Origin: Thermoleophilia bacterium | Lineage (GTDB): Bacteria; Actinomycetota; Thermoleophilia; Gaiellales; F1-60-MAGs149 | Length of the DNA: 64,000 bases | Direction: 5' to 3' | Assembly: GCA_037133755.1 (NCBI GenBank) | Contig: JBAXNN010000008.1 | Coordinates: 30,245 to 94,244, forward strand | Shown: positions 2,396 through 54,247 of the stretch, in pieces | Position numbering within the stretch: position 1 is the first letter of the stretch | Layout of the letters: each line of letters starts with the position of its first letter | Program-made: the position numbers and the translations under genes | The notes under the pieces: model-generated | Seen by the model: the letters and a program-made list of their open reading frames with translations, nothing else | Databases searched by the model: none | Told to the model about the DNA's origin: nothing

Positions 2396-4250
<1,855 letters not shown>

Positions 4251-40471: not shown

Positions 40472-40563
40472 CTGTTCTGCCTATGGGCCTGTGAGACGCT
40501 TAACGTCGTGCGGTGGTGCGAGGACTTCGCCGTGACGAGCGGACGTCGAGGTGGTAATGCGCG

Positions 40564-40602
40564 GTGGATGTCCCAAAGGGGTCAGACCTTTTTGGGACAT
40601 GG
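40564..40602 (+). repeat. Palindromic repeat family 2, copy A1
   Basis: GTGGATGTCCCAAAGGGGTCAGACCTTTTTGGGACATgg. It is a near-palindrome; the outer right arm is degenerate. Confidence 0.85.
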
Positions 40603-40631
40603 CTGCGTTCCGCTGCAGATCGACTCCGCCC

Positions 40632-40670
40632 TGATGTCCCAAAAGGGTCTGACCCCTTTGGGACATCCAC
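40632..40670 (-). repeat. Palindromic repeat family 2, copy A2 (inverted relative to A1)
   Basis: tgATGTCCCAAAAGGGTCTGACCCCTTTGGGACATCCAC. Its reverse complement matches A1 except for one base in the core. The 25 outer nt of A1 and A2 are perfect reverse complements. Confidence 0.85.
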
Positions 40671-40758
40671 CCTCCACGGCCACGCCGATCGCGCCCAACG
40701 CCACGGCTTCATCCCGCACCGTCGCACAGACCCATCGGCAGAACACGTGGGTGCAACG

Positions 40759-52076: not shown

Positions 52077-52724
52077 TCACGGAGCGCTGAGCGGGCCGCC
52101 CTCGTCCTCGACGGCCTTGCGGCACCCCGGGCGAGCCAGCACGGCGTCGTAGTGCGCGGCGAGCGACGGCACCTTCCACCAGTTTGCGTCGCCCTCGAGT
52201 TCGGTACCCCACGACGACAGCATCGCGAGGTAGATGTCGGCGATCGTGAACGTCTGCCCGAGCAAGAAGGGGCCGTTGCCGAGCTGCTTGGCGATCTCGT
52301 CGCGCAGCGCCGTCAACTCGACGACGGCCGCGGCAACGACGGCGTCGGCACCGTTGGCATCGGCCGTGTGTCGCGCCGGATAGAAGAAGCGTAGGTACGC
52401 CGCCTGCACGGTGTTCGTCAGGAACATCAGCCAGCGCACGGCCTCAGCCCGCTCGGGCGTGCCGACCTTCGGGATCAGGTCGTGATCGGGAAACGCGTCC
52501 GCGAGGTGCAGGCAGATCGCCGCCGACTCGGTCAGCACGAGCTCGTTGTGCTTAAGCACCGGCACCTTGCCGAACGGACTCATCTCCAGGTAGCCGGCGG
52601 GCGATGTCGGCACGCCGTCCTCGGTGCGCTCGACCAACACGAAGTCGTAGAGCGTGCCGATCTCCTCCAAGACCATGTGGGGAGCGGAGGTGGCGGTACC
52701 GGGGATGCCGTAGAGGGTGATCAT
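52077..52724 (-). CDS. Glutathione S-transferase family protein
   Basis: MITLYGIPGTATSAPHMVLEEIG..SPFGKVPVLKHNELVLTESAAICLHL. Confidence 0.8.
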   Translation of the reverse strand: MITLYGIPGTATSAPHMVLEEIGTLYDFVLVERTEDGVPTSPAGYLEMSPFGKVPVLKHNELVLTESAAICLHLADAFPDHDLIPKVGTPERAEAVRWLMFLTNTVQAAYLRFFYPARHTADANGADAVVAAAVVELTALRDEIAKQLGNGPFLLGQTFTIADIYLAMLSSWGTELEGDANWWKVPSLAAHYDAVLARPGCRKAVEDEGGPLSAP

Positions 52725-52761
52725 GGGCGAAGCGTAGCGCCGCCCATGATCACCCTCTACG
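52709..52761. promoter_or_regulatory. Perfect 21-bp inverted repeat (11-nt spacer) enclosing the GST start codon
   Basis: Left arm CGTAGAGGGTGATCATGGGCG (52709..52729) covers 5 nt of leader, the ATG and codons 2-5 plus part of codon 6. Right arm CGCCCATGATCACCCTCTACG (52741..52761) is its exact reverse complement in the 5' leader. Confidence 0.8.
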
Positions 52762-52799
52762 TGGATGTTCCAAAGGGGTCAGACCCTTTTGGAACATCG
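52761..52799 (+). repeat. Palindromic repeat family 2, copy B1
   Basis: GTGGATGTTCCAAAGGGGTCAGACCCTTTTGGAACATcg. Confidence 0.85.
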
Positions 52800-52829
52800 A
52801 TCCCGCCCGCCGAACCTCCCGCTTCGCGC

Positions 52830-52870
52830 GTGGATGTTCCAAAAGGGTCTGACCCCTTTGGAACATCCAC
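52830..52870 (-). repeat. Palindromic repeat family 2, copy B2 (inverted relative to B1; full 41-nt near-palindrome)
   Basis: GTGGATGTTCCAAAaGGGTCtGACCCcTTTGGAACATCCAC. 14-bp perfect outer arms and an inner GGGTC/GACCC stem. Confidence 0.85.
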
Positions 52871-52872
52871 GC

Positions 52873-52910
52873 CCAGTCGGGTGGAGGCCTAAAGGCCTCC
52901 ACCCGACTGG
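52873..52910 (-). terminator. Perfect 17-bp hairpin with the glxD-like stop codon in its loop
   Basis: CCAGTCGGGTGGAGGCC taaa GGCCTCCACCCGACTGG. TAG (52891..52889) spans the loop/stem junction. The last six codons form one arm. Confidence 0.55.
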
Positions 52911-54247
52911 CCAGGAATCCAGTCGGTGCCGGCCAGCGGCACCTGCGCCATCGCGGCCGACTCGATCGTCAGCGCCACGAGGTCCTCGGGCTCGAGGTTA
53001 TGGATGTTGCTCTTGCCTGCAGCACGCGCGAGCGTCTGGATCTCGAGCGTCATCGTCTTCAGGTAGTTGTTGAGCCGGCGTCCACCCTGCTCCGGGTCGA
53101 AGCGCGCGGCGAGCTCCGGATCCTGCGTCGAGATGCCCGTGGGGTCCTTGCCCTCGTGCCAGTCGTCGTAGAAGCCGGCGGCCGAGCCGATCTTGGCGTA
53201 CTCGTCCGCGTAGGCCGGGTCGTTGTCGCCGAGGGCGATCATCGCCGCGACGCCAACCGACACCGCGTCCGCACCGAGTGCGAGCGCCTTGGCGGCGTCG
53301 GCACCGTTGCGAATACCGCCAGAGACGATCAGCTGCACCTCGCGGTGCATGCCCATCTCCTGCAGCGCCGTCACGGCCTGGCGGATGCACGCGAGCGTCG
53401 GCAGGCCGACGTGCTCGATGAACACATCCTGCGTGGCGGCCGTGCCGCCCTGCATGCCGTCGAGGACGATCACGTCGGCACCGGCCTTTACGGCCAGCTG
53501 CGTGTCGTAGTACGGGCGGCTCGCACCGATCTTGATGTAGATCGGCTTCTCCCAGTCGGTAATCTCGCGGATCTCCTGGATCTTGATCTCGAGATCGTCC
53601 GGGCCGGTCCAGTCGGGGTGACGGCACGCGGAGCGCTGGTCGATGCCCTTCGGCAGGTTGCGCATCTCGGCGACGCGATCCGAGATCTTCTGGCCGAGCA
53701 GCATGCCGCCGCCGCCGGGCTTCGCGCCCTGGCCGACGACGACCTCGATCGCGTCAGCGCGACGCAGATCGTCGGGGTTCATGCCGTAGCGCGACGGGAG
53801 CAGCTGGTAGACGAGGAGCTCGGAGTGGCCGCGCTCCTCCTCCGTCATGCCGCCGTCGCCGGTGGTCGTCGACGTGCCCGCCATCGTCGCGCCACGACCG
53901 AGGGCCTCCTTGGCCGGACCCGACAGGGCGCCGAAGCTCATGCCGGCGATCGTGACGGGGATCTTCAGATGGATCGGCTTCTTCGCGAAGCGCGTGCCGA
54001 GCACGACGTCGGTCGAGCACCGCTCGCGATAGCCCTCGAGGGGATAGCGCGACATCGAGGCGCCGAGAAACAGCAGGTCGTCGAAGTGCGGCAGCTTGCG
54101 CTTGGCGCCGAAGCCGCGGATGTCGTAGATGCCCTGGCTCGCCGCGCGACGGATCTCATGGATCGTGTTGCGATCGAAGATGTAGGACTCGCGGAGCCCC
54201 GGATGCCAGTTGGTGCCGTTCGGGCCCGTGGGATCGAAATCAGTCAT
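52889..54247 (-). CDS. FMN-binding glutamate-synthase-family protein (GltB domain 2; GlxD/MgsC-like)
   Basis: ORF 52889..54346 trimmed to ATG 54247 (GGGAG upstream). IAGMSFGALS, VVVGQGAKPGGGG, LDGMQGGTAA, VSGGIRNGADAAKALALGADAV. Confidence 0.85.
   Translation of the reverse strand: MTDFDPTGPNGTNWHPGLRESYIFDRNTIHEIRRAASQGIYDIRGFGAKRKLPHFDDLLFLGASMSRYPLEGYRERCSTDVVLGTRFAKKPIHLKIPVTIAGMSFGALSGPAKEALGRGATMAGTSTTTGDGGMTEEERGHSELLVYQLLPSRYGMNPDDLRRADAIEVVVGQGAKPGGGGMLLGQKISDRVAEMRNLPKGIDQRSACRHPDWTGPDDLEIKIQEIREITDWEKPIYIKIGASRPYYDTQLAVKAGADVIVLDGMQGGTAATQDVFIEHVGLPTLACIRQAVTALQEMGMHREVQLIVSGGIRNGADAAKALALGADAVSVGVAAMIALGDNDPAYADEYAKIGSAAGFYDDWHEGKDPTGISTQDPELAARFDPEQGGRRLNNYLKTMTLEIQTLARAAGKSNIHNLEPEDLVALTIESAAMAQVPLAGTDWIPGQSGGGL

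Follow-up and report, generated by a model that had tools for sequence, protein, structure and literature searches.

Leader hairpins that sequester a start codon or a Shine-Dalgarno sequence, such as RNA thermometers and translational attenuators, lie in the transcribed 5' untranslated region (5' UTR) and are built from imperfect, meltable stems, and their register is kept with covariation. Here we focus on a hairpin that shares one feature with them. It lies at the start of a glutathione S-transferase (GST) gene in a 64,000-nucleotide stretch of a Thermoleophilia genome (GCA_037133755.1, contig JBAXNN010000008.1, positions 30,245 to 94,244), referred to as the window, and it abuts a doublet of palindromic repeats. 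Like a thermometer or attenuator, this hairpin (hairpin A) would place the ATG and the first codons in a stable stem if the transcript were long enough. However, its 5' arm lies upstream of the predicted transcription start, its stem is perfect and its register is not conserved. A second comparison is offered by the 'P-nucleotide' footprints of hAT or V(D)J type, few-nucleotide inverted duplications which come from opened, hairpinned flanks and remain after the element leaves. These too are short inverted duplications of unique flanking sequence at the edge of a mobile element, but the arms found here are 17-40 nt long and separated by a loop, and the doublet is still present.

A third comparison is with mutational processes acting on DNA. 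Quasi-palindromes in bacteria were reportedly the subject of earlier work by Ripley and by Lovett. A replication template switch can create a perfect stem in one event, and can maintain or repair a stem that already exists (Monttinen and Loytynoja, 2022; PMC8794818). As in such mutations, the new sequence here is the exact reverse complement of its neighbour, changes are clustered, a MatE gene elsewhere has undergone a same-length replacement from a short seed, and the arms of each lineage always match their partner. Two features set our cases apart: they cluster at doublet edges with a strong bias towards gene 5' ends, and their stems, at 17-40 bp, are much longer than is typical of RNA genes. 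In addition, the switch itself is something that we infer.

The doublet is in turn reminiscent of REPINs, which are doublets of REP sequences that form hairpins and are mobilised by RAYT transposases, as outlined in the abstract of Bertels and Rainey (2011; PMC3116915). Measured against that outline, the doublet likewise consists of two inverted palindromic units with a variable spacer that together form one long hairpin; it is extragenic, present in many copies per genome and mostly downstream of genes, and both of its arms change together. Unlike a REPIN so described, it has no RAYT near the sampled copies and no GTAG/CGTC tag at the end of the unit. Its host belongs to the Thermoleophilia (Actinomycetota), with a 16-nt core in several other phyla. 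The doublet units also lack the unpaired end motif by which the abstract of PMC3733652 defines the GTAG/CGTC-tagged REP superfamilies. Flanking inverted duplications of unique DNA go unmentioned in the abstracts of PMC3116915, PMC3733652 and PMC3337134.

We propose, at a probability of about 60%, that hairpin A is a DNA-level inverted duplication produced by a recurrent template switch rather than a switch of translation. The sequence evidence that leads to this view comes from the geometry of the GST promoter, from orthologous loci, from other doublet flanks and from one locus where the state before and after such a change can be compared.

The hairpin at the GST start codon

The GST gene (52077..52724, minus strand) encodes 215 aa with Pfam domains GST_N and GST_C. 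Its start at 52724-52722 is backed by all close homologues, which are 215 aa long with 100% coverage and whose source names are Gaiellales and Gaiellaceae metagenome-assembled genomes (MAGs), and by a GST_N match that runs from residue 2. The distal (3') arm of hairpin A (52709..52729, minus strand; CGTAGAGGGTGATCATGGGCG) holds leader positions -5..-1, the ATG and coding positions +4..+16, which amounts to five leader nucleotides, the start codon, codons 2-5 and the first base of codon 6 (13 coding bases after the ATG). The proximal (5') arm (52741..52761, minus strand), at promoter positions -37..-17, is its exact reverse complement at 21/21 positions. Between the arms lies an 11-nt loop (52730..52740, minus strand) containing the predicted -10 hexamer TACGCT (52736-52731).

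The 21-mer occurs at these two places only in the window and not once in 100 dinucleotide shuffles, and the only perfect spaced-arm inverted repeats of such size in the window are those at the doublet beside GST. The hairpin's fold as RNA has an energy of -47.1 kcal/mol (z -9.4, reached by 0/200 shuffles). Its proximal arm overlaps the inverted repeat of the doublet (52760-52798 / 52833-52871) by 2 nt, a 'CG' at the doublet edge being common to both. An assembly artefact is ruled out by independent assemblies, the same hairpin being present in a separately assembled Logan contig (L001), and three assemblies of other samples (L005, L006 and L007) having one whose arms are 20/21 identical. What the sequence-only reading of this DNA had described, namely a perfect 21-bp inverted repeat over the GST start, the contents of its arms and its contact with the repeat doublet, is borne out in each respect. 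It had also noted a mini-ORF whose TGA overlaps the GST ATG; this exists (MGGATLRP*, minus strand, overlap ATGA), although its coordinates are 52747..52721 and not 52749..52723. Because CATG is its own reverse complement, an inverted copy of the start also contains an ATG, which makes the mini-ORF a mechanical by-product. The GAGG found 6 nt 5' of its ATG and the 8-codon counterpart in L005 (MGIATLRP*) are probably incidental.

Whether such a helix could act on translation depends on where the GST transcript begins. In Mycobacterium tuberculosis, a TANNNT -10 element sits 7-12 bp upstream of mapped start sites; mycobacteria have no -35 consensus, and 26% of their genes are leaderless (PMC3898074). 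We surveyed the offsets of TANNNT before 1400 candidate starts, taken from high-GC3 ORFs of the window and of Thermoleophilia loci totalling about 720 kb. The motif was found 42 times at -12..-7, 26 times at -13..-8 and 10 times at -14..-9, with mostly 0-6 occurrences at other offsets, and leaderless genes thus appear to be common in this class. The TACGCT hexamer in the loop of hairpin A stands at -12..-7 of the GST ATG. A hexamer TA(C/G)(G/A)CT is found 6-7 nt before the ATG in every GST orthologue, its T, A, C and T positions being invariant (10/10). There is no Shine-Dalgarno sequence before the ATG, since the upstream CGCTTCGCCC contains no GGAG, GAGG or AGGA, and, counted from the ATG, the first 85 nt have less structure than their shuffles (z +1.2). 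Given the peak at the GST offset, the invariant hexamer and the missing Shine-Dalgarno sequence, the transcript is predicted to start within the distal arm, at the A of the ATG or beside it, and the gene is probably leaderless. The upstream arm would therefore be outside the gene's own mRNA, where the helix could not form, and the effect of hairpin A on GST expression from its own promoter is probably nil.

These predictions bear directly on the main proposal of the sequence-only reading, that an mRNA helix blocks initiation at the GST start unless melted or cleaved. The proposal is disfavoured because it needs the upstream arm to be in the GST transcript, and the promoter geometry argues otherwise. 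With a start predicted between the upstream arm and the coding part of the distal one, the block is poorly supported and close to refuted on computational grounds. A switch that melts fares no better, as a perfect, GC-rich 21-bp stem of -47 kcal/mol lacks the weak points expected of one. Moreover, two relatives without the repeats (L120 and L002) carry comparable start-codon hairpins of their own, which also counts against the block.

Two further roles at this start were considered and set aside. A -35 element made by the inverted copy is unconvincing, as its TAGAGG matches at only 3/6 positions. A start-codon hairpin as a general regulatory motif of leaderless-type starts is ruled out by the lack of any excess: leaderless-type starts and the others have mean energies of -25.2 and -27.3 and a paired start codon in 21% and 23% of cases, respectively. 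A scan for sigma-70 promoters and U-tract terminators returned no matches, but it demands an E. coli-like -35 element and so is uninformative for an actinomycetotal host. No terminator-like or U-tract site was found in 52400-53100, where hairpin A is followed by GCAUCCCCGG. Searched against Rfam at a permissive E-value, the region gave only spurious, far-sub-threshold microRNA-precursor matches to the long hairpins.

The GST start in related lineages

Comparison of orthologous loci shows that hairpin A is not a positionally conserved RNA structure. Across 10 orthologues, column-wise pairing covers 63.5% of cells, against a shuffled mean of 63.5%, and the covariation score is 0.095 against 0.103 for shuffles. 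In the register of the window the hairpin is absent or decayed in 7/10 lineages. Loci without it are L004, L008, L118, L121 and L122, and it has decayed in L022, L040 and L116.

The lineages differ in what surrounds the start. In L005, L006 and L007, whose GST is 84% identical to that of the window, an imperfect hairpin C (a second hairpin, beyond the doublet as seen from GST), a doublet from a different subfamily and a hairpin A with window-like arms around a different loop are found. The freshwater Thermoleophilia L022/L117 and L040/L116 (73%) have the doublet and the same spacing to the ATG, with a proximal arm that has decayed; no helix is left in L022, and that of L040 amounts to 13 bp with three G-U pairs. 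Searching metagenomes for a doublet beside a GST start yielded two loci only, both of this known freshwater type. In L008-L013 (79%), the doublet and hairpin C follow the synthase gene, two opposite-strand genes lie between these and GST, and there is no start hairpin. None is found either in L004, L118, L119 and L122 (89-93%), where the neighbour is a divergent ArsP_1 gene, or in L121 (88%), which has an abhydrolase gene upstream and a leader identical to that of the window. L002/L003 (93%) and L120 (90%) each have a 45-nt spacer without a doublet and their own strong start-codon hairpin, GGTCATGTCCCGCAG / CTGCGGGACATGATC in L002 (-38.7 kcal/mol, z -4.8) and GAGGGTGATCGTGC / GCATGATCACCCTC plus CGGA / TCCG in L120.

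The hairpins of the window, L120 and L002 differ in register and loop size, and in each the proximal arm fits the lineage's own leader. The coding-side stem of L120 is nearly identical in sequence to that of the window in a shifted register, while the proximal arm of L002 is different. Lineage-specific leader bases are also paired, as CGCCC/GGGCG in the window, TCCG..GC/GC..CGGA in L120 and CTGCGGGAC/GTCCCGCAG in L002. Since each proximal arm reverse-complements the same conserved coding sequence, identity of these arms between lineages is not evidence of descent. An attempt to read the L002 hairpin as the remnant of a doublet end (ATGTCCC...GGGACAT) could not be separated from chance, as the start-codon CATG forces part of the match.

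Gene order at this junction varies even among the close relatives L002, L004, L005, L008, L118 and L121. The synthase and GST genes are adjacent, or split by opposite-strand ArsP_1 and DUF1980 genes, or split by an abhydrolase gene. The junction, which is upstream of the GST -10 box, appears to be a hot spot of rearrangement.

In the window, the gene upstream is a co-directional one for a glutamate-synthase-like FMN domain protein (52889..54247, minus strand; 452 aa, as in orthologues; Pfam Glu_synthase). Read along the minus strand, its 3' end is followed by hairpin C, the doublet, hairpin A and the body of GST. Hairpin C (52873..52910, minus strand) escaped the sequence-only reading. It is a second perfect hairpin on the opposite side of the doublet, with an 18-bp stem and a 2-nt loop, and the glutamate-synthase-like gene ends within it, with its six final codons (QSGGGL) and its TAG (52891-52889). 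The upstream gene ends in QSGGGL* in the lineages with hairpin C and in Q(S/A)RDGF* or RSKDGF* in those without it. From these sequences, the C-terminus seems to have been rewritten along with the hairpin. One pair of hairpin C is changed on both sides between the window (GGT/ACC) and L006 (GGC/GCC).

Palindromic doublets and the hairpins at their flanks

The doublet itself (52760..52871) consists of two 39-nt arms, 100% complementary and 34 nt apart, each of which is a 17-bp palindrome. The conserved unit is GGATGYNNCRAAGGGGTCAGACC, and conservation begins at GGATG. A scan of species-representative genomes for the core gave at least 102 loci with many copies per genome, mostly in Gaiellales/Thermoleophilia MAGs among the matches listed. 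No tag was found at the unit ends, where GTAG occurred at 16/187 and CGTC at 20/187 with no fixed position. No Rfam family matched the doublets, whether those of the window or the copies in other phyla. No Y1 transposase (RAYT) was found among the 25 listed of 49 Pfam families matched by 88 small ORFs within 600 nt of doublets, whole genomes not being scanned. A full-text literature search on the repeat core and another on Gaiellales/Thermoleophilia repeats returned nothing relevant. Together, these comparisons point to an undescribed REPIN-like repeat family of Thermoleophilia whose flanks would be hot spots for hairpin-making events.

Subfamilies differ between lineages at the orthologous site: TTCC in the window (52760-52871), mixed TTCC/TCCC in L008 (about 1090-1198), GCGAC in L005 (2842-2963) and TCAC in L022 (about 3200-3290). 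All four half-arms are altered together across subfamilies. This would reflect either an in-place replacement by another member of the family or a concerted change of the arms. The window has a second copy, of the TCCC subfamily, between convergent genes (40563..40672). That copy is nested in an outer inverted repeat of 26 nt (40473-40498 / 40720-40745, 88%) which begins right after a stop codon, and similar outer repeats surround the doublets of L075, L076 and L087.

Outside the Thermoleophilia, the 16-nt core AAGGGGTCAGACCCTT forms inverted doublets in other phyla (L014, L016, L018, L043, L048, L092, L096, L097, L106 and L112). Those of two betaproteobacterial MAGs have a DnaA-box-like TTATCCACA in their arms, three Lachnospiraceae have closely similar spacers (for example, CCATATTCAGAATATTCAGAAAACGG in L096), and a Bacteroidaceae MAG and Schlesneria have such doublets as well. 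Other palindromic repeat families, GGAGGACACCACATCCG-cg-CGGATGTGGTGTCCTCC and AATGTCCAGAAGGGGTCAGGCACGATCTGGACATT doublets, are present in the same genomes (L029, L042, L049, L077, L100 and L115).

Hairpins of unique sequence recur beside these doublets. A perfect stem of at least 17 bp that starts no more than 4 nt from the doublet edge is found at 9/195 flanks and at 0/996 control positions. A fold of -45 kcal/mol or lower is found at 11/183 flanks and 0/1161 controls, the medians being equal. Of the 31 perfect hairpins in 728 kb, 12 are no more than 45 nt from a doublet core. About 5-6% of doublet flanks carry perfect unique-sequence hairpins, with stems of 17-40 bp. An exact reverse complement, as in hairpin A, is present in 8 other doublet-flank hairpins, and both flanks of one doublet carry a hairpin in the window and in L115.

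Eight of the nine flank hairpins stand at gene 5' ends, whereas only 43/117 classifiable flanks are 5' ends (binomial, about p = 0.002 by our own estimate, with some cases reclassified by hand). The start codon is within the distal arm at GST in the window, at the MatE gene of L053, at scpA in L084, at an ORF downstream of an HTH_17 gene in L113 and at an unannotated ORF on the right flank of L115. In L039 and on the left flank of L115 the distal arm ends 1-3 nt before the ATG, and in L069 it ends 13 nt before it; the only one at a 3' end is hairpin C. Far edges of the copied stretches cluster at +11..+17. Several of these hairpins (L115, L053 and L039) lie between divergent genes, where read-through cannot occur. 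In L113 (5750-5980), the doublet and a perfect 21-bp hairpin lie between the HTH_17 gene and an ORF of 128 aa, the start codon of which falls in the distal arm. The two may be a toxin-antitoxin-like pair that the repeat has split; Pfam did not confirm the ORF as PIN.

One of these loci allows a comparison of before and after. The MatE gene of L053 has orthologues adjoining doublets in L085, L046 and L109, and all four loci share the leader GACATACTGTCGCC(G/C)ATGACCG with a 4-bp seed palindrome, GACA tac TGTC. In L085 and L046 there is only this seed. In L053, the 19 nt upstream of the seed have been replaced with no change in length, and the stem is now 19 bp long (CGGGCGGTCATCGGCGACA / TGTCGCCGATGACCGCCCG), 3 nt away from the doublet; the replacement goes with the loss of 35 nt between two CATC motifs. 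L109 has a cluster of four substitutions, including one in the leader, that lift a different quasi-palindrome from 7/11 to 11/11. Since the doublet is present in 4/4 orthologues and the long stem in one only, the stem came later than the doublet. Being clustered, of the same length and extending a seed, as in the mutations described by Monttinen and Loytynoja (2022; PMC8794818), the changes bear the signatures of replication template switching.

Origin and possible roles of the hairpin

Applied to GST, a template switch would proceed as follows. During replication, the nascent strand would switch template and copy about 21 nt of the GST start region (-5..+16; the distal arm, 52709..52729) as its reverse complement, and this inverted copy would replace the DNA between the palindromic doublet and the GST -10 box. 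Such a quasi-palindrome mutation would yield a perfect stem in one step, which could later be re-perfected from the conserved coding arm. With transcription beginning at or next to the ATG, translation of the gene's own mRNA would not be blocked. The helix would form only in single-stranded DNA or in read-through transcripts from the glutamate-synthase-like gene. In read-through RNA, hairpin A, hairpin C and the doublet would make up a very stable block hiding the GST start, which may act as a barrier or as a 3'-end stabiliser. A snap-back of reverse transcription at the mRNA 5' end is ruled out as a source of the copy, as part of the duplicated stretch precedes the point where the transcript is predicted to start. 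The sequence-only reading had offered an inverted duplication of the gene's 5' end, created when the repeat inserted, as an alternative to its block. The duplication is supported by our comparisons; they do not show its link to insertion, given the hairpin of L120 without a doublet.

Several observations sit less easily with a template switch. The GST transcription start is predicted from motif geometry, and a GST-locus ancestor of the window lineage without the arm was not found, L121 having an identical leader and unrelated upstream DNA. The controls for doublet flanks are mostly coding DNA, and the enrichment over intergenic DNA is smaller, by estimate at least four-fold. As L120 and L002 show, such hairpins do not need a doublet. 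Between the window and L005, 20/21 positions of the proximal arm are identical despite a four-fold synonymous divergence of 0.32, for which we calculate about p = 0.003 under neutral drift. Such identity needs either repeated re-templating from the coding arm or selection, perhaps lineage-specific, for pairing. Between L022 and L040, the same arm has 6/21 differences at a four-fold divergence of 0.20, which is about the neutral rate; this drift and the window/L005 identity have both been noted as fitting simple neutral decay badly. Finally, strong start hairpins occur in three GST lineages with the co-directional synthase directly upstream (window/L005, L120 and L002) and are missing where the neighbour is divergent, a pattern that fits a selected insulating role as well.

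That role is the alternative that survives best, although we consider it unlikely. It would make the hairpin a selected RNA element between co-directional genes, one that hides the GST start in read-through transcripts, stops or stabilises the upstream mRNA, or does both. GST protein would then come from the gene's leaderless transcript alone; the stem would be supplied by template switching and kept perfect by selection. Apart from the arm kept between the window and L005, this would account for three differently built hairpins that each enclose the -10 box and the ATG where the synthase adjoins GST, for the lack of a hairpin in lineages with divergent neighbours (L004, L008 and L118), and for the strength of the 281-nt intergenic block as a whole (-199.6 kcal/mol, z -15). 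It is harder to reconcile with L022 and L117, which have the same gene order and the doublet and have lost the pairing, or with the arm of L022 and L040 drifting at about the neutral rate. Nor is there a U-tract terminator or positional covariation, as registers shift. Comparable hairpins stand at other doublets between divergent genes (L115, L053 and L039), with no read-through to insulate against, and such hairpins are not in excess at leaderless-type starts as a whole. A combination of the two processes is doubtful too. The doublet family would then regularly provoke or accompany perfect inverted duplications of the adjoining promoter and start codon, biased to 5' ends (far edge about +11..+17), some of which were selected as insulators for leaderless genes.

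Rather improbable is a third possibility, in which the doublet would be a mobile element, inserting at the base of hairpins that already exist or turning target ends into hairpins through its own transposition chemistry. The hairpins do start 0-4 nt from the doublet, at both of its edges in the window and L115, where a CATCC motif like the doublet end also follows the distal arm; the same site holds different doublet subfamilies from one lineage to another, and the L120 hairpin without a doublet could be an unoccupied target. Yet such hairpins are lacking at about 94% of doublet flanks, the 728 kb contain few perfect hairpins of unique sequence that are unoccupied, and no transposase was found next to doublets among the Pfam families listed for small ORFs within 600 nt. 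At MatE, moreover, the doublet is in all four orthologues and the long stem in one, so the stem followed the doublet. Least probable is that the repeat acts in double-stranded DNA to control the GST promoter, whether as the operator of a dimeric regulator or as a cruciform that depends on supercoiling: it is centred on the predicted -10 hexamer and its DNA fold is about -30 kcal/mol on either strand (-29.7 kcal/mol for hairpin A), but its arms are the gene's own start sequence, register and arm sequences vary between lineages, and other hairpin-bearing genes have no common half-site.

For annotation, the GST locus advises caution, as a perfect start-codon stem can be a mutational by-product and an Actinomycetota promoter may sit in what appears to be its loop. 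The loci described here, among them a clean before/after pair, would show template switching rewriting promoter-proximal DNA in bacteria in nature. They would also be a tractable system for studying how long perfect hairpins originate and persist, should selection or a conflict between promoters and replication underlie the 5'-end bias. Were some of the hairpins indeed kept as insulators, the leaderless genes concerned would be translated only from their own start-codon transcripts, and were the duplications provoked by the doublets, these repeats would offer the Thermoleophilia a route to gene-specific occluding hairpins in one mutational step.

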